A DNA stretch of 64,000 nucleotides from assembly GCF_054482595.1 (NCBI RefSeq), contig NZ_CM137008.1; one strand, 5' to 3'. Position 1 is the stretch's first letter. The number at the start of each line of letters is the position of its first letter. This document shows positions 50,998-57,679 of the stretch, piece after piece. The notes under the pieces were generated by a model, which saw nothing but the letters and a program-made list of their open reading frames with translations, did not search any database and was not told where the DNA came from. The position numbers and the translations under genes are program-made.

Positions 50998-51545
50998 GTT
51001 GTCTCCTTGCTGACCAGCGCACGAAACCGTGCCCAATCAAATGCAGGACCGGGATCGGTTTTCCGATCCGGCGCAATATCACAATGGCCCGTCATGTTTT
51101 TAGCGATATCCGGATAGCAATCAATCAGTGCCCGCGTAACCGCCGCAAGCTGTTGATACTGCGCATCGGTATACGCCAGCGTATCGGTGCCTTCAAGCTC
51201 AATCCCAATAGAAAAATCATTGCAGCGTTCGCGCCCCTGATACTGAGAGACTCCCGCATGCCAGGCACGTTTATCGAAAGGAACATACTGGACTATTTCA
51301 CCATCACGGCGAATCAAACAGTGAGCGGAGACGCGCAAATGGGCGATCTCAGCAAAGAAAGGATGTGCCTGCGGATCAATAGTTCCAGTGAATAATGCGT
51401 CGATCCACGGACCGCCAAACTCGCCTGGCGGCAGGCTAATATTGTGCACCACCAGCAGGGTGGGTGTTTCGTCATCCGGGCGGCAATCGTAATGTGGTGA
51501 GGGAACGCGGCGCGCGCCAACCAGCCACCCCTGTTCTAACAACAT
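50994..51545 (-). CDS. ampD: 1,6-anhydro-N-acetylmuramyl-L-alanine amidase
   Basis: 183-aa ORF recognised as AmpD. Confidence 0.92.
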
Positions 51546-51572
51546 GCAGGATCTCCTTATATGTGGTGCTAA

Positions 51573-52526
<954 letters not shown>

Positions 52527-52728
52527 TTGCTGACAGATTTATCCGCTCCATAGTGGGCGGATAATCTCCCCTTCCCCAACCTTCTTCGTAACGCCTCGCA
52601 AATTTCTTGTCTTTCGCTGCAACGAAATAAAAAACCTCGGAAGCAGCTTTCCCGTTTCGTTTTTTGCCCCTCGCCTGTGCTGATGGCGTTTGCCAAAGTA
52701 GCACCAACCAAATCAAGGAGCGAAACAG

Positions 52729-53169
52729 ATGGACAAGCAACGCGGTTTTACACTTATCGAACTGATGGTGGTTATTGGCATCATTGCCATTTTAAGCGCC
52801 ATTGGTATTCCCGCTTATCAAAACTACCTGCGCAAAGCCGCACTCACCGACATGCTACAAACCTTTGTGCCTTACCGTACCGCCGTAGAGTTGTGCGCGC
52901 TGGAACATGGTGGATTAGATACCTGCGACGGTGGCAGCAATGGCATTCCCTCGCCTACCACCACCCGCTATGTTTCAGCCATGAGTGTGGCAAAAGGCGT
53001 GGTGTCGCTGACCGGGCAAGAAAGTCTCAATGGGCTAAGCGTCGTCATGACGCCGGGTTGGGATAACGCAAACGGCGTCACCGGCTGGACGCGCAACTGC
53101 AATATTCAAAATGACAGCGCATTGCAGCAAGCCTGCGAAGATGTCTTCCGCTTTGATGACGCCAACTAA
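52729..53169 (+). CDS. ppdD: Type IV prepilin (major pilin)
   Basis: MDKQRGFTLIELMVVIGIIAIL: class III signal peptide with G-F cleavage site and E+5. Confidence 0.88.
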   Translation: MDKQRGFTLIELMVVIGIIAILSAIGIPAYQNYLRKAALTDMLQTFVPYRTAVELCALEHGGLDTCDGGSNGIPSPTTTRYVSAMSVAKGVVSLTGQESLNGLSVVMTPGWDNANGVTGWTRNCNIQNDSALQQACEDVFRFDDAN

Positions 53170-53178
53170 GGAGCGGCA

Positions 53179-54564
53179 ATGAATATTCCACAGCTCACGG
53201 CCCTGTGTCTGCGTTATCAGGGAGTCTTGCTGGATGCCAGCGAAGAAGTGGTTCATGTTGCGGTGGTCGATGCCCCCTCACATGAGTTGCTGGACGCATT
53301 GCATTTCGCTACCACCAAACGTATTGAGATCACCTGCTGGACGCGCCAACAAATGGAAGGTCACGCCAGTCGCACACAACAGACATTGCCCGTAGCTGTT
53401 CAGGAGAAGCATCAGCCCAAAGCAGAGTTGCTGACTCGAACGTTACAATCTGCGCTGGAACAACGCGCGTCTGATATTCATATCGAACCAGCGGACAATG
53501 CCTACCGCATCCGCTTGCGTATCGACGGCGTATTGCATCCTTTACCGGATGTTTCACCGGATGCCGGAGTCGCATTAACCGCCAGATTAAAAGTGCTGGG
53601 AAACCTGGATATTGCGGAACATCGCCTGCCGCAGGACGGGCAATTCACTGTCGAACTGGCAGGAAAAGCCGTCTCATTTCGTATTGCGACCTTACCATGT
53701 CGGGGTGGTGAAAAGGTGGTATTAAGGTTGTTACAGCAGGTGAGCCAGGCACTGGATGTTAACACGCTGGGAATGCAGCCGTTACAACTGGCGGACTTTG
53801 CTCATGCCTTGCAACAACCGCAGGGACTGGTGCTGGTAACTGGCCCTACAGGCAGCGGCAAAACGGTCACGCTTTATAGTGCCCTGCAAAAGCTGAATAC
53901 CGCTGACATTAATATTTGTAGCGTCGAAGATCCGGTTGAGATCCCCATAGCCGGACTAAACCAGACGCAAATTCATCCGCGTGCCGGACTCACCTTTCAG
54001 GGCGTTTTGCGTGCGTTATTGCGCCAGGATCCTGACGTCATTATGATCGGAGAGATCCGCGATGGCGAAACGGCAGAAATTGCCATTAAAGCCGCGCAAA
54101 CCGGTCACCTGGTGTTGTCCACGCTACACACCAATTCCACCACTGAAACGCTGGTACGTTTACAGCAAATGGGGGTCGCCCGCTGGATGCTATCATCGGC
54201 GCTTACGCTGGTAATAGCCCAGCGTCTGGTACGCAAACTTTGCCCACATTGTCGCCGCCAGCAAGGGGAGCCCATCCATATTCCAGTCAATGTATGGCCG
54301 TCGCCGCTGCCCCACTGGCAGGCACCCGGTTGTGTACATTGCTACCACGGTTTTTATGGTCGTACGGCCTTATTTGAAGTTCTGCCCATAACGCCGGTCA
54401 TTCGTCAGCTTATTTCCGCTAATACCGACGTTGAATCGCTGGAAACGCACGCACGACAGGCGGGTATGTGTACGCTTTTTGAAAACGGCTGCCTGGCCGT
54501 GGAGCAAGGCTTAACCACCTTTGAAGAGTTAATCCGCGTACTGGGGATGCCGCATGGCGAGTAA
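53179..54564 (+). CDS. hofB: Type IV pilus assembly ATPase (GspE/PilB family)
   Basis: 461 aa; Walker A GPTGSGKT; tetracysteine motif (CPHC...CVHC). Confidence 0.88.
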   Translation: MNIPQLTALCLRYQGVLLDASEEVVHVAVVDAPSHELLDALHFATTKRIEITCWTRQQMEGHASRTQQTLPVAVQEKHQPKAELLTRTLQSALEQRASDIHIEPADNAYRIRLRIDGVLHPLPDVSPDAGVALTARLKVLGNLDIAEHRLPQDGQFTVELAGKAVSFRIATLPCRGGEKVVLRLLQQVSQALDVNTLGMQPLQLADFAHALQQPQGLVLVTGPTGSGKTVTLYSALQKLNTADINICSVEDPVEIPIAGLNQTQIHPRAGLTFQGVLRALLRQDPDVIMIGEIRDGETAEIAIKAAQTGHLVLSTLHTNSTTETLVRLQQMGVARWMLSSALTLVIAQRLVRKLCPHCRRQQGEPIHIPVNVWPSPLPHWQAPGCVHCYHGFYGRTALFEVLPITPVIRQLISANTDVESLETHARQAGMCTLFENGCLAVEQGLTTFEELIRVLGMPHGE

Positions 54565-55756
54565 GCAACTCTGGCGCTGGCATGGCATAACCGGCGACGG
54601 CAATGCGCAAGATGGGATGCTATGGGCAGAGAGCCGTGCTTTGCTGCTCATGGCACTACAGCAACAGATGGTTACCCCACTTAGCCTGAAGCGAATCGCC
54701 ATCAATTCTGCGCAGTGGCGAGGAGATAAAAGCGCGGAAGTCATTCATCAACTGGCGACGCTACTCAAAGCCGGGTTAACGCTTTCTGAAGGGCTGGCAC
54801 TGCTGGCGGAACAGCATCCCAGTAAGCAATGGCAAGCGTTGCTGCAATCGCTGGCGCACGATCTCGAACAGGGCATTGCTTTTTCCAATGCCTTATTACC
54901 CTGGTCAGAGGTATTTCCGCCACTCTATCAGGCGATGATCCGCACGGGTGAACTGACCGGTAAGCTGGATGAATGCTGCTTTGAACTGGCGCGTCAGCAA
55001 AAAGCCCAGCGTCAGTTGACCGACAAAGTGAAATCAGCGTTACGTTATCCCATCATCATTTTAGCGATGGCAATCATGGTGGTTGTGGCAATGCTGCATT
55101 TTGTTCTGCCGGAGTTTGCCGCTATCTATAAGACCTTCAACACCCCACTACCGGCACTAACGCAGGGGATCATGACGCTGGCAGACTTTAGTGGCGAATG
55201 GAGCTGGCTGCTGGTGTTGTTCGGCTTTCTGCTGGCGATAGCCAATAAGTTGCTGATGCGCCGACCGACCTGGCTTATAGTGCGGCAGAAATTGCTGTTA
55301 CGCATCCCGATTATGGGTTCACTGATGCGGGGACAAAAACTCACGCAGATTTTTACGATTCTGGCGCTGACACAAAGTGCAGGCATTACTTTTTTGCAGG
55401 GCGTAGAGAGCGTCAGAGAAACAATGCGCTGCCCGTACTGGGTGCAACTTCTGACACAAATCCAGCACGATATCAGTAACGGTCATCCCATCTGGCTGGC
55501 GCTAAAAAATACCGGGGAGTTTAGCCCGCTCTGTTTGCAATTAGTGAGAACAGGAGAGGCATCCGGCTCGCTGGACCTCATGTTAGACAACCTCGCCCAT
55601 CATCATCGGGATAACACAATGGCGCTGGCGGATAACCTCGCAGCCTTACTGGAACCGGCGTTGCTGATCATAACGGGAGGAATTATCGGTACGCTGGTGG
55701 TGGCGATGTATCTGCCAATTTTCCATTTAGGCGATGCGATGAGTGGGATGGGATAA
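54554..55756 (+). CDS. hofC: Type IV pilus assembly inner-membrane platform protein (GspF/PilC family)
   Basis: 400 aa; 11-nt overlap with hofB; GspF-like duplicated domains. Confidence 0.88.
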   Translation: MASKQLWRWHGITGDGNAQDGMLWAESRALLLMALQQQMVTPLSLKRIAINSAQWRGDKSAEVIHQLATLLKAGLTLSEGLALLAEQHPSKQWQALLQSLAHDLEQGIAFSNALLPWSEVFPPLYQAMIRTGELTGKLDECCFELARQQKAQRQLTDKVKSALRYPIIILAMAIMVVVAMLHFVLPEFAAIYKTFNTPLPALTQGIMTLADFSGEWSWLLVLFGFLLAIANKLLMRRPTWLIVRQKLLLRIPIMGSLMRGQKLTQIFTILALTQSAGITFLQGVESVRETMRCPYWVQLLTQIQHDISNGHPIWLALKNTGEFSPLCLQLVRTGEASGSLDLMLDNLAHHHRDNTMALADNLAALLEPALLIITGGIIGTLVVAMYLPIFHLGDAMSGMG

Positions 55757-55790
55757 CGCTGGCGTGTTGCTCCACACCAGCGTTGGAAGA

Positions 55791-56834
55791 TTACAGGTTG
55801 TTGAAGATGCGGTTTTCTTGTTCCTGCACACGGATAAATGTGGTGCGCTTGGTCAGTTCTTTCAGGCGTGAAGCCCCAACGTATGTACAAGCTGAACGCA
55901 GGCCGCCCAAAATATCACGCGCGGTATTTTCAACCGGGCCTCGCAGCGGCAGCTTAACGGTTTTACCTTCTGCTGCGCGATATTCCGCAACGCCGCCAAC
56001 GTGACGTTTCATCGCAGACTCGGAGCTCATGCCGTAGAACAGCATAAATTTCTCGCCGTTCTCCTCAACGATGCGACCGCCGCTCTCTTCGTGGCCCGCC
56101 AGCATGCCGCCAAGCATGACGAAATCGGCACCGCCGCCAAAGGCTTTTGCGACATCGCCCGGCGTGGTGCAGCCACCGTCGCTGACGATCATTCCGCCCA
56201 GACCGTGCGCCGCATCGGCACATTCGATTACCGCAGAAAGCTGCGGATAACCGACGCCTGTTTTGACGCGAGTTGTACAAACAGAACCTGGGCCAATGCC
56301 AACTTTAACGATATCAGCACCGGAGAGGATAAGCTCCTCACACATTTCACCAGTCACTACGTTGCCAGCACAAATGGTTTTGGTCGGCCACGCTTCACGC
56401 GCTTTCGCAACGAACTGCACGAAGTGTTCGGAATAACCATTCGCCACATCAATACAAACGAAGTTTAATGCCGGGTTCAGGTCGAGAATCTGTTTAGTTT
56501 TTTCGAAATCCGCATCAGACGTACCGGTAGAAACCATCACATGTTTCAGCACATCAGCGGAAGAATTGTTGATAAACGCTTGCCACTCTTCGACAGAATA
56601 GTGTTTATGCACAGCAGTCAAAATATCAAAAGAAGCCAGCGCAGAGGCCATAGAAAATGTACCTACGGTGTCCATATTTGCGGCGATAATCGGCACGCCG
56701 GACCAGCTCTGACCTGAATGTTTGAAGGTGAATTGACGTTCCAGTTCAACATCGGAACGGCTTTTAAGAGTGGAGCGTTTAGGGCGGATGAGAACGTCTT
56801 TAAAACCTAACTTCAGATCTTCTTCAATACGCAT
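55791..56834 (-). CDS. guaC: GMP reductase
   Basis: 347-aa [32 protein letters not shown] recognised as GuaC. Confidence 0.95.
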
Positions 56835-57058
56835 GTGCGGATTCCTGGGGTTAATGGCTATAAGGGTAAGAGCGCAACTCCAGTGACGCTATCATACGCA
56901 CTAATCAATGCGGCGCAAGACTGCGAAATTGTCTTTTTTTACGCTACAATCCCATAAATTTACCTGGTAAATAGTGAGCGAACGTTTCATCAATTTCGCT
57001 TTCGTGCACTCATTTTTAACGTTTTGATAATCATGATGAATTCCCGGGAATATAAATT

Positions 57059-57679
57059 ATGAGGTATATAGTTGCCTTAACGGGAGGCATTGGCAGTGGC
57101 AAGAGTACCGTTGCCAATGCGTTTGCTGATCTCGGAATTAACGTCATTGATGCCGATATTATTGCGCGTCAGGTGGTTGAACCAGGTGCACCTGCGCTAC
57201 ATGCCATTGCTGATCACTTTGGCGCTAACATGATTGCTGCTGATGGAACATTGCAGCGCCGGGCCTTGCGCGAGCGGATCTTCGCCAACCCGGAAGAGAA
57301 AAACTGGCTTAACGCCCTGCTGCATCCGCTGATTCAGCAAGAGACGCAACACCAGATCCAGCAAGCTACTTCCCCCTATGTACTGTGGGTTGTGCCATTG
57401 CTGGTAGAAAACTCACTGTATAAAAAAGCGAATCGAGTGCTGGTGGTGGATGTCAGCCCAGAAACGCAACTTAAGCGCACCATGCAGCGCGATGATGTAA
57501 CTCGCGAGCATGTCGAACAAATCCTTGCTGCTCAGGCAACGCGCGAAGCCCGCCTTGCCGTGGCAGATGACGTCATTGATAATAACGGCGCACCGGATGC
57601 TATCGCATCGGATGTTGCCCGCCTGCACGCACACTATTTGCAGCTTGCGTCGCAGTTTGTCTCACAGGAAAAACCGTAA
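57059..57679 (+). CDS. coaE: Dephospho-CoA kinase
   Basis: 206 aa; P-loop GGIGSGKST. Confidence 0.92.

Follow-up and report, generated by a model that had tools for sequence, protein, structure and literature searches.

Does the gene cluster that lies between nadC and guaC encode an intact type IV pilus core, and if so, what would that pilus be used for? A first-pass annotation of this DNA (the window, a single stretch of 64,000 nucleotides) had described positions 52729 to 55756 as an intact ppdD-hofB-hofC operon of the competence type. The ORF list reproduced the claimed layout exactly, with three co-directional plus-strand ORFs filling the span (Table 1). The proposed operon identity also held up, as all three proteins passed the NCBIfam models for PpdD, HofB, and HofC (PRK10574, 270 bits versus a cut-off of 138; PRK10436, 821 versus 617; PRK10573, 662 versus 401), in agreement with the annotation of E. 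coli XH990. The region from 52500 to 55900 was 100% identical to XH990, and the window as a whole differed from that genome at 3 of 64,000 positions; PGAP names the genes at the XH990 locus ppdD, gspE (= hofB), and hofC. Since curated models and solved structures agree, we regard the identity as settled, and we put the probability that this locus is the chromosomal ppdD-hofB-hofC of E. coli, which forms the core of the one type IVa pilus system that the species carries on its chromosome, at roughly 0.92.

Table 1. Coordinates of features at the ppdD-hofB-hofC locus, numbered from the first nucleotide of the window
Feature	Position	Strand	Description	Basis
CRP-S type CRP site TTCGTAACGCCTCGCA	52585-52600	unassigned (.)		Pattern search
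ppdD promoter / 5' leader region	52601-52714	+		Alignments of 81 loci
Conserved block TGCAA	52618-52622			
Conserved A-run	52629-52634			
Conserved block GGAA-N6-TTCC	52639-52652			
Conserved block TTTTTTG	52660-52666			
Conserved block CTCG	52670-52673			
Conserved block TGCCAAAGT	52691-52699			
ppdD Shine-Dalgarno AAGGAG	52715-52720	+	Ends 8 nt before ATG	Sequence
ppdD	52729-53169	+	146 aa, major type IVa prepilin	ORF list, Pfam, NCBIfam, motifs
PpdD leader MDKQRG	52729-52746	+	Leaves 140-aa mature pilin	
hofB	53179-54564	+	461 aa, PilB/GspE-family hexameric assembly ATPase	ORF list, Pfam, NCBIfam, motifs
HofB Walker A	53842-53865	+		
HofB tetracysteine motif	54241-54342	+		
hofC	54554-55756	+	400 aa, PilC/GspF-family inner-membrane platform protein	ORF list, Pfam, NCBIfam, motifs
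Inverted repeat CGCTGG...CCAGCG	55758-55783	unassigned (.)		Read directly from sequence

By motif reading, PpdD begins with the leader MDKQRG followed by FTLIE, which places Gly at -1, Phe at +1, and Glu at +5. The protein has a single hydrophobic segment (residues 9 to 27) and four cysteines, at mature positions 50, 60, 118, and 130. It scored above the cut-offs of the N_methyl model PF07963 (39.9 bits versus 21.2) and TIGR02532 (35.9 versus 16.3), was marginal against Pfam Pilin (21.8 bits versus a cut-off of 22), and matched the NF007862 equivalog over residues 1 to 145 of 146 (270 bits; cut-off, 138). Its mature form is identical at 138 of 140 residues to the subunit of the EHEC pilus filament (PDB 6gv9). 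Judged by its leader, N-terminal helix, cysteine-containing globular domain, and PpdD orthology, the product is a type IVa prepilin.

The second gene starts after a gap of 9 nt from the ppdD stop codon, with GGAG directly upstream. Motif reading of HofB located Walker A (GPTGSGKT, residues 222 to 229) and an Asp box (EDPVE, 250 to 254), followed by Walker B (VIMIGEIRD, 287 to 295), a His box (TGHLVLSTLH, 308 to 317), and a predicted zinc-binding tetracysteine motif composed of CPHC (355 to 358) and CVHC (385 to 388). HofB covered the full T2SSE profile (PF00437; E = 7e-146), and its N terminus gave a partial, weak MshEN-like match (25.8 bits, profile positions 24 to 86 of 90). Motifs alone cannot separate this ATPase family into pilus and secretion types. 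HofB remained under the cut-offs of both the PilB model (TIGR02538; 489 bits versus 676) and the GspE model (TIGR02533; 459 bits versus 630) while passing the HofB-specific PRK10436 model, and by this scoring it is a HofB orthologue. Among solved structures, its closest relatives were ATPases of the PilB type, including 5zfr, 5tsg, and 3jc8 (E about 1e-105).

The hofB stop overlaps the hofC start by 11 nt (ATGGCGAGTAA); given this overlap and the 9-nt gap upstream of hofB, translation of ppdD, hofB, and hofC is probably coupled. HofC matched T2SSF (PF00482) in two stretches (E = 9e-58) and has three hydrophobic segments, at residues 167 to 185, 212 to 230, and 369 to 387. These tandem T2SSF domains and putative transmembrane segments, together with the PRK10573 score, mark it as a PilC/GspF-type platform protein, and its closest solved relative was M. 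xanthus PilC (3jc8; E = 8e-45). All the motifs that had been named earlier, namely, the class III leader, Walker A, the tetracysteine motif, and the hofB/hofC overlap, were therefore present in the sequence. Downstream, the 34-nt space between the convergent hofC and guaC contains an inverted repeat that may be a transcript-end hairpin; no T-run follows it on either strand, and a terminator scan did not call it.

The further claim that the three genes are free of frameshifts and early stops was likewise sustained, since ORF lengths and phases were equal in a K-12 derivative, O157:H7, and five other E. coli strains, and alignment with seven other strains revealed no internal stop in ppdD, hofB, or hofC. 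Of 5,426 complete E. coli genomes, 5,424 carried the locus, and an automatic ORF finder, when applied to 80 further species of Enterobacteriaceae, recovered the three-ORF layout in 72; in the species representative of C. braakii (L028), the ppdD ORF ends at codon 58. Mean dN/dS within E. coli was 0.24 for ppdD, 0.07 for hofB, and 0.12 for hofC, values which argue that all three genes are under purifying selection. The synonymous diversity of hofB and hofC within E. coli was about twice that of their neighbors. Between genera, in a species set chosen by PpdD similarity, median identity was 67% for HofB and 60% for HofC, and PpdD was as conserved as the housekeeping enzyme NadC. In this PpdD-selected set, the pilin was thus more conserved than the motor HofB and the platform HofC.

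Control of the operon was addressed through the region upstream of ppdD. A CRP-S site is defined as a CRP site of 22 bp in which C occupies position 6 and G position 17 and whose core is TGCGA-N6-TCGCA. The site TTCGTAACGCCTCGCA, 144 nt upstream of ppdD, has the diagnostic C6 and G17 and a perfect right half (TCGCA); its left half (TTCGT) is poor, with 2 mismatches to TGCGA. This site was invariant in 8 E. coli strains and, together with its flanks, identical in the K-12 derivative. Among 81 Enterobacteriaceae loci, 57 had a match with 2 or fewer mismatches that started between -148 and -137 relative to the ATG, compared to 0.3 expected from shuffles, while C6 was retained in 77 and G17 in 61 of these loci; four Klebsiella loci carried perfect sites. 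The ppdD upstream fragment has been found to bind CRP experimentally (PMC1635313), and the site lies midway in that EMSA fragment as set by the published primers, this primer-defined fragment being the basis on which we match it to the published ppdD CRP-S site.

Downstream of the CRP-S site, the core GGAG of the ppdD Shine-Dalgarno sequence was invariant or at least 90% conserved over the 81 loci. The plus strand from 52601 to 52714 contained no match to the sigma-70 consensus, and no convincing -10/-35 pair was found at a class I distance (site centered near -62, -73, or -93 from the transcription start) or class II distance from the CRP-S site. Comparison by eye with the sigma-E, sigma-32, and sigma-70 consensus sequences at these distances likewise gave no convincing match. 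The same interval holds, at 52618-52699, a series of blocks conserved across Enterobacteriaceae (TGCAA, an A-run, GGAA-N6-TTCC, a T-run, CTCG, and TGNCANAGT), and it is doubtful that they constitute an undescribed cis-regulatory element. If they did, they might serve as an operator, as a place where Sxy or some other factor makes contact, or as a promoter of unusual type, and they might help explain both the silence of the operon and a constraint on the pilin gene exceeding that on the motor genes.

Several specific candidates in this region were considered and set aside. The minimum free energy fold of the E. coli sequence pairs the T-run at 52654-52666 with 52714-52726 (z = -2.8), which would hide the Shine-Dalgarno sequence in an RNA helix; this helix was unsupported. 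RNAalifold predicted zero pairs, and hence no consensus RNA structure, upstream of ppdD in the 81 loci; the pairing between T-run and Shine-Dalgarno sequence lacks a covariation signal because both arms are already conserved as sequence blocks. The A-run, a GGAA...TTCC hairpin, and the T-run might together have made up an intrinsic terminator or attenuator, but the scan called one on the minus strand only, with 5 pairs; on the plus strand, the stem has an A-C mismatch, the pairing register shifts in other genera, and the Klebsiella loci lack the T-run. A sigma-54 promoter (TGGAAC-N5-TTCC) was rejected because the near-invariant base at -13 is C rather than the required G, and a second CRP-S site near -34 had 1 mismatch in a single species (L074) and was weak elsewhere. 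A search of positions 51500 to 57200 against Rfam returned zero matches at E values up to 1.

The partner genes of a pilus (secretin, alignment subcomplex, minor pilins, peptidase, and retraction ATPase) are absent from the 64,000-nt window. When the check for an unlinked prepilin peptidase and secretin that the first-pass annotation had called for was run on the near-identical XH990 genome, both were found annotated as intact. This genome carries, unlinked to the operon and with none flagged as a pseudogene, hofMNOPQ, ppdA-ppdB-ygdB-ppdC, pppA, yggR (a PilT-like ATPase), sxy, crp, dprA, and ycaI (a ComEC homologue), and an unlinked 155-aa GspO-type ORF with a full Peptidase_A24 domain represents a short second peptidase. 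With the partners read from XH990, at 3 nucleotide differences, the lineage is predicted to have the full pilus and DNA-uptake gene set.

Drawing on published papers and family knowledge for Sxy/CRP dependence, pilin processing, filament structure, and the extension mechanism, we propose that these parts would act as follows. PpdD would be synthesized as a prepilin whose class III leader is 6 residues long, be cleaved after Gly-1 by an unlinked prepilin peptidase (PppA and the GspO-type enzyme are candidates), and remain anchored in the inner membrane via its hydrophobic N-terminal helix. ATP hydrolysis by a HofB hexamer, transmitted via the polytopic HofC, would then lift pilins from the membrane and add them at the filament base, with HofMNOP serving as the alignment complex, HofQ as the outer-membrane secretin, and PpdA, PpdB, YgdB, and PpdC as minor pilins. 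The operon would be silent in ordinary growth, its transcription requiring cAMP-CRP at the weak CRP-S site plus the co-activator Sxy (TfoX).

Published data on expression fit the cryptic, competence-type label that the locus had been given: the ppdD transcript was earlier undetectable (PMC1635313), and PpdD was made by 0 of 72 ECOR strains in ordinary culture (Sinha and Redfield 2012, PMC3330819). Sxy induces ppdD 90-fold in a strictly CRP- and cAMP-dependent manner, and mutation of crp or of cyaA eliminates this induction (Cameron and Redfield 2006, PMC1635313). In K-12, Sxy induction leads to processed PpdD (PMC3330819), and the proposed link to DNA uptake is borne out by the hofQ-dependent uptake that follows Sxy induction (PMC3330819). 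Use of DNA as a nutrient is stated in the literature for "competence gene homologues" generally, and the PGAP "DNA utilization" names in XH990 are confined to hofMNOPQ. The E. coli pilus has been built from a set of 13 genes (bioRxiv 10.1101/856302), and chromosomal transformation of E. coli has been seen only with recombineering help (PMC3330819).

We also weighed other readings of the operon. PGAP gives HofB the product name "type II secretion system protein GspE," and HofB and HofC score 459 and 264 bits on the GspE and GspF models, as might be expected if the two proteins were parts of a type II secretion system (T2SS) rather than of a pilus system. Neither score, however, reaches its cut-off (630 and 424, respectively), whereas the two proteins do pass the models specific to HofB and HofC, and HofB scores slightly higher on PilB (489 bits). 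Moreover, the operon opens with the gene for a true pilin, whose filament has been solved as a type IV pilus; no gene for a pseudopilin, GspC/L/M, or a secretin lies next to it; and XH990 encodes a further, complete T2SS that carries gspE and gspF genes of its own, so that a secretion role is scarcely credible. The ORFs could also be open but non-functional relics that have been retained by chance or by linkage to essential neighbors. Such a history would accommodate the lack of standard-culture expression in K-12 and the 72 ECOR strains (PMC3330819), the roughly 2-fold synonymous diversity of hofB and hofC relative to their neighbors, their fast divergence between genera (medians of 67% and 60%), and the ppdD ORF truncated at codon 58 in C. 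braakii. It is nevertheless very improbable in light of the dN/dS values of 0.07 to 0.24, the equal ORF lengths across E. coli phylogroups, the retention of the layout in 72 of 80 other species and of the locus in 5,424 of 5,426 genomes, the intactness of all catalytic motifs, and the function observed after Sxy induction or reconstitution (PMC3330819, bioRxiv 10.1101/856302, PMC2649431).

The operon is also the EHEC hemorrhagic coli pilus operon hcpABC, which encodes an adhesive pilus (PMC2649431), and "competence-type" is therefore not its sole documented role. [quoted passage not shown] XH990 is itself a human urine isolate, and PpdD here differs from the EHEC subunit at just 2 of 140 mature residues. 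On the other hand, the conserved CRP-S site puts the operon in the Sxy regulon with dprA, comEC, and hofMNOPQ homologues (PMC1635313), hofQ is needed for Sxy-induced DNA uptake (PMC3330819), UPEC showed no piliation in the many conditions tried (PMC2649431), and NadC-like conservation of the pilin would be unexpected for an exposed adhesin under host or phage pressure. We therefore consider it unlikely that an adhesive or virulence pilus is the operon's true job and its competence-type regulation secondary. The adhesion and DNA-uptake roles are not mutually exclusive, and we infer that DNA uptake through HofQ is the main physiological role and that some pathotypes use the pilus for adhesion as well.

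Taken together, these results indicate that this copy of ppdD-hofB-hofC is an ordinary intact allele of a near-universal and already known E. coli locus. The operon, the pilin structure, the Sxy/CRP-S control, and the partner genes have all been previously described, and the discovery value is accordingly small. The lineage, whose closest relative is a multidrug-resistant urinary isolate, is predicted to keep the full Sxy-inducible pilus and DNA-uptake gene set, and this retention is relevant background for horizontal gene acquisition and kidney colonization.

The nearest known systems are the E. coli K-12 operon (b0108-b0106) and EHEC hcpABC, which share with the present copy the nadC-guaC locus, gene order, gene lengths, and junctions. 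Over a 3.4-kb stretch, identity was 97.9% to K-12 and 98.2% to O157:H7, with allelic differences only: PpdD, HofB, and HofC differ from those of the K-12 derivative at 1, 6, and 3 residues and from those of O157:H7 at 3, 4, and 9 residues, respectively, and the CRP-S site and nearly the whole upstream region are identical to both. The operon looks mosaic, with ppdD nearest K-12, hofB nearest O157:H7, and hofC nearest strain WP2-W18-CRE-03. The pilABCD operons of H. influenzae and V. cholerae likewise encode a pilin, a PilB-type ATPase, and a PilC-type platform in the same order and, like the E. coli operon, are under CRP-S and Sxy/TfoX control and are used in DNA uptake (PMC1635313), and E. 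coli lacks pilF2 (PMC1635313). Whereas pilABCD ends with the peptidase gene pilD, the E. coli operon ends at hofC, its peptidases being encoded by the unlinked pppA and GspO-type ORF.

The type IVa pili of P. aeruginosa, M. xanthus, and Neisseria (PilA/PilE, PilB, and PilC) share this three-part core for extension. In alignments, PilE and PAK pilin match PpdD over its N-terminal half, PilB matches HofB, and PilC matches HofC, although HofB is about 100 to 125 residues shorter than those PilB proteins (461 versus 566 to 588 aa). Unlike PpdD, the pilins of these organisms are variable, and to our knowledge twitching motility has not been documented for the E. coli ppdD-hofB-hofC system. The T2SS (Klebsiella Pul and E. 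coli Gsp-beta, with GspE, GspF, and GspG) has a homologous ATPase and platform and subunits with class III signal peptides, and it shares its prepilin peptidase with the E. coli pilus system. The E. coli operon nevertheless falls under the GspE, GspF, and GspG model cut-offs and differs in gene neighborhood, and the PpdD system builds a long surface filament, in contrast to the periplasmic pseudopilus of the T2SS.

The ppdD, hofB, and hofC genes are co-directional, flanked by nadC and the convergent guaC, and they encode the type IV pilus components described by the first-pass annotation. The PpdD N terminus reads MDKQRG followed by FTLIELMVV, with Gly-1, Phe+1, and Glu+5, confirming the reported class III (type IV prepilin) signal peptide; the protein has a single hydrophobic segment (residues 9 to 27) and four cysteines. 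HofB carries both the Walker A motif (GPTGSGKT) and the tetracysteine motif (CPHC and CVHC) noted earlier for this GspE-type ATPase, together with an Asp box, a Walker B motif, and a His box. The three hydrophobic segments of HofC agree with PilC/GspF topology, and its two T2SSF domains in Pfam bear out its description as a GspF-type platform protein. Pfam also identified N_methyl and Pilin domains in PpdD and a T2SSE domain in HofB (E = 7e-146).

All three proteins scored above the curated cutoffs of their own NCBIfam equivalog models (PpdD, 270 versus 138; HofB, 821 versus 617; HofC, 662 versus 401), and the type II secretion system GspE, GspF, and GspG models and the PilB and PilC models gave matches that all fell under the cutoff. 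Mature PpdD was identical at 138 of 140 positions to chain A of PDB entry 6gv9, the enterohemorrhagic E. coli (EHEC) type IV pilus (6gms was also matched), while the closest solved structures were PilB ATPases for HofB and Myxococcus xanthus PilC for HofC. The ppdD stop codon and the hofB start are separated by 9 nt, with GGAG preceding the hofB start, and hofC starts at an ATG within hofB and shares its last 11 nt (ATGGCGAGTAA), which is the stop/start overlap originally noted. Taken together, these data indicate that the annotation was accurate and support its interpretation as a ppdD-hofB-hofC operon.

The operon lies between aroP, ampE, ampD, and nadC on one side and guaC, coaE, zapD, yacG, and mutT on the other, a gene order that marks the well-known 2.5-min region of the E. 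coli chromosome. The G+C content is flat across the locus (0.50 to 0.55), and this profile gave no foreign-island signal there. An inverted repeat, CGCTGG...CCAGCG (55758-55783), occupies most of the 34-nt gap between hofC and guaC, with no T-run following it on either strand. In the laboratory strain XL10-Gold, the guaC gene adjoining hofC is an annotated pseudogene with an internal stop (L002, 6292-7335). The yacG-mutT spacer (58630-58843) is 214 nt in the window and 215 nt in a K-12 derivative and ETEC1746, but five strains, O157:H7 among them, have only ~87 to 99 nt; this indel of ~120 nt may be a repetitive extragenic element. The window also holds another pilus system that is unrelated to this one, a seven-gene yad-type chaperone-usher fimbrial operon between folK and panB (13425-20398).

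When positions 52500-55900 were compared by megablast with 5,426 complete E. coli genomes, the stretch was present in 5,424 of them, with at least 80% query coverage in 5,423. One record was 100% identical, that of strain XH990 (human urine, Zhejiang), whose only differences from the 64-kb window are the three at positions 144, 10354, and 37175 and in which PGAP names the genes ppdD, gspE (hofB here), and hofC. We aligned the locus to a K-12 derivative, O157:H7, and five further strains spread down the identity ranking. The lengths and frames of all three genes were constant and none of the seven strains had an internal stop, so the claim that the genes are intact holds. Relative to the window proteins, these strains had 1 to 4 amino acid differences in PpdD, 4 to 10 in HofB, and 1 to 11 in HofC. 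The mean pairwise dN/dS ratios among the eight E. coli strains, 0.24 for ppdD, 0.07 for hofB, and 0.12 for hofC, show that the genes are under purifying selection. The operon is a well-known, near-universal E. coli locus, already described, in its normal intact state.

Beyond E. coli, when each bacterial species was represented by a single genome, PpdD orthologues (78 to 99% identity) turned up in another 80 species, almost all of them Enterobacteriaceae. An automatic ORF finder recovered the same three-ORF layout at 72 of these 80 loci: a pilin of 143 to 157 amino acids (aa), an ATPase of ~461 aa whose gene begins a few bases after the pilin gene, and a platform protein of ~400 aa, with an overlap between the ATPase and platform genes that is usually 11 nt. 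Among the eight loci lacking this layout, at least two (L022 and L033) were too short to contain the downstream genes, and two (L082 and L086) had a 403-aa HofB and a TTG ppdD start under the start rule applied. In another of the eight, from the species representative Citrobacter braakii ATCC 51113 (L028, 4001-4177), the ppdD ORF ends at codon 58, which could reflect either a genuine pseudogene or an error in the assembly.

Median identity to the window proteins between genera was 84% for PpdD, roughly level with NadC (86.5%), and much lower for HofB (67%) and HofC (60%); the PpdD value is inflated because these loci (L011 to L090) were picked by PpdD similarity. The order PpdD > HofB > HofC was nevertheless kept in fixed species (90/69/67% in Salmonella and 86/64/57% in Klebsiella pneumoniae), the opposite of what is usual for type IV pili, whose pilins are variable. 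Within E. coli, mean dS was ~0.083 for hofB and hofC, 0.029 for ppdD, and 0.02 to 0.05 for the neighbors, such that synonymous diversity across hofB/hofC (53179-55756) was ~2-fold that of the flanking genes. Only 13 of the 5,424 genomes were at least 99% identical over the 3.4-kb locus, and the allele has the appearance of a recombination mosaic.

The 202-nt nadC-ppdD spacer, which is 98% identical among the eight E. coli strains, contains TTCGTAACGCCTCGCA at 52585-52600. This sequence fits the core TGCGA-N6-TCGCA of CRP-S, the Sxy-dependent type of CRP site; the right half is a perfect match, and the left half differs at two bases. Since the window contains 31 matches with at most two mismatches versus 44 expected, the match is not significant by itself. 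It falls in the middle of the ppdDF/ppdDR primer fragment of Cameron and Redfield (2006; PMC1635313), to which CRP binds weakly but specifically; in the same study, Sxy induced ppdD 90-fold, with no induction in a crp or cyaA background. Of 81 Enterobacteriaceae ppdD loci, 57 carry a site with no more than two mismatches that starts -148 to -137 from the ATG, versus 0.3 expected from shuffles; because the loci are related to one another, these counts do not represent independent events. The diagnostic bases C6 and G17 were found in 77 and 61 of these loci, respectively, the six central bases vary freely, and four Klebsiella loci have perfect sites. Even so, half-sites kept around a free spacer are characteristic of a binding site. 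The CRP-S assignment is thus supported by its position in the primer fragment and by its positional conservation across species, and control by Sxy and CRP is taken from the K-12 experiments, the K-12 allele being identical at the site and its immediate flanks.

No match to the sigma-70 consensus was found on the + strand upstream of ppdD, and no convincing -10/-35 pair lay at class I or class II spacing from the CRP-S site. Between this site and the ppdD start codon, the 81 loci share conserved blocks (52618-52699), namely, TGCAA, an A-run, GGAA-N6-TTCC, TTTTTTG, CTCG, and TGNCANAGT. We detected no conserved RNA structure for these blocks over the 81 loci and no matching Rfam family. A sigma-54 promoter was considered and rejected, and the pattern does not fit a sigma-70 promoter or a terminator.

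No secretin, peptidase, or minor pilin genes were found within the 64-kb window. Since XH990 has essentially the same sequence, we read the partner loci from its annotation, in which none of these genes is marked as a pseudogene (see the table).

Coordinates of the pilus operon in the window and of its partner genes in E. coli XH990
Feature	Location	Strand	Length	Source or annotation
ppdD	window 52729-53169	+	146 aa	six-frame ORF list
hofB	window 53179-54564	+	461 aa	six-frame ORF list
hofC	window 54554-55756	+	400 aa	six-frame ORF list
hofMNOPQ	XH990 410,041-413,327			PGAP annotation, not pseudogene
ppdA-ppdB-ygdB-ppdC	XH990 1,012,327-1,014,063			annotation, not pseudogene
pppA	XH990 796,967-797,776			adjoins complete Gsp-beta secretion system; not pseudogene
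yggR (PilT-like)	XH990			not pseudogene
crp, dprA	XH990			not pseudogene
ycaI (ComEC homologue)	XH990			not pseudogene
sxy	XH990			not pseudogene

The sole annotated ORF between bfr and rpsJ in XH990 (463,551-464,018; L092, 13552-14019) encodes 155 aa with a complete Peptidase_A24 domain. The annotation of this interval lists neither chiA nor any gsp secretion gene, whereas in K-12 chiA and the gspC-O secretion operon lie near this position. The unlinked peptidase and secretin genes that the first-pass annotation had suggested checking for elsewhere in the genome are represented in XH990 by pppA, this A24 ORF, and hofQ, none of them marked as a pseudogene. The XH990 machine genes are those listed as sufficient for the E. 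coli pilus (bioRxiv 10.1101/856302). The window also encodes YacC (33485-33832), a 115-aa member of the PulS/OutS secretin-pilotin family (PF09691, 37.6 bits), with no secretin gene nearby. Elsewhere in XH990, the ETT2 type III secretion locus harbors an inserted multidrug resistance island of ~28 kb (943,000-971,500; L094). The island includes a class 1 integron (dfrA12 and sul1), mph(A), a mer operon, aac(3)-IId, TEM-1, and IS26 copies.

The gene identities and motifs are those observed here, and the mechanical steps are drawn from the protein family. By analogy with PilA, PilB, and PilC systems, PpdD would enter the inner membrane and have its leader cut off by an A24 peptidase, a HofB hexamer working via HofC would add pilins at the filament base, and the filament would exit the cell through HofQ. 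The operon had been described as normally cryptic and linked to DNA uptake, and the literature agrees: PpdD was detected in ordinary cultures of 0 of 72 ECOR strains, whereas Sxy induction in K-12 yielded processed PpdD and hofQ-dependent DNA uptake (PMC3330819). For the use of DNA as a nutrient, the literature consulted credits competence homologues in general. [quoted passage not shown] Given the uptake and pilus results of these two studies, "competence-type" and "adhesive pilus" describe two documented uses of one machine.
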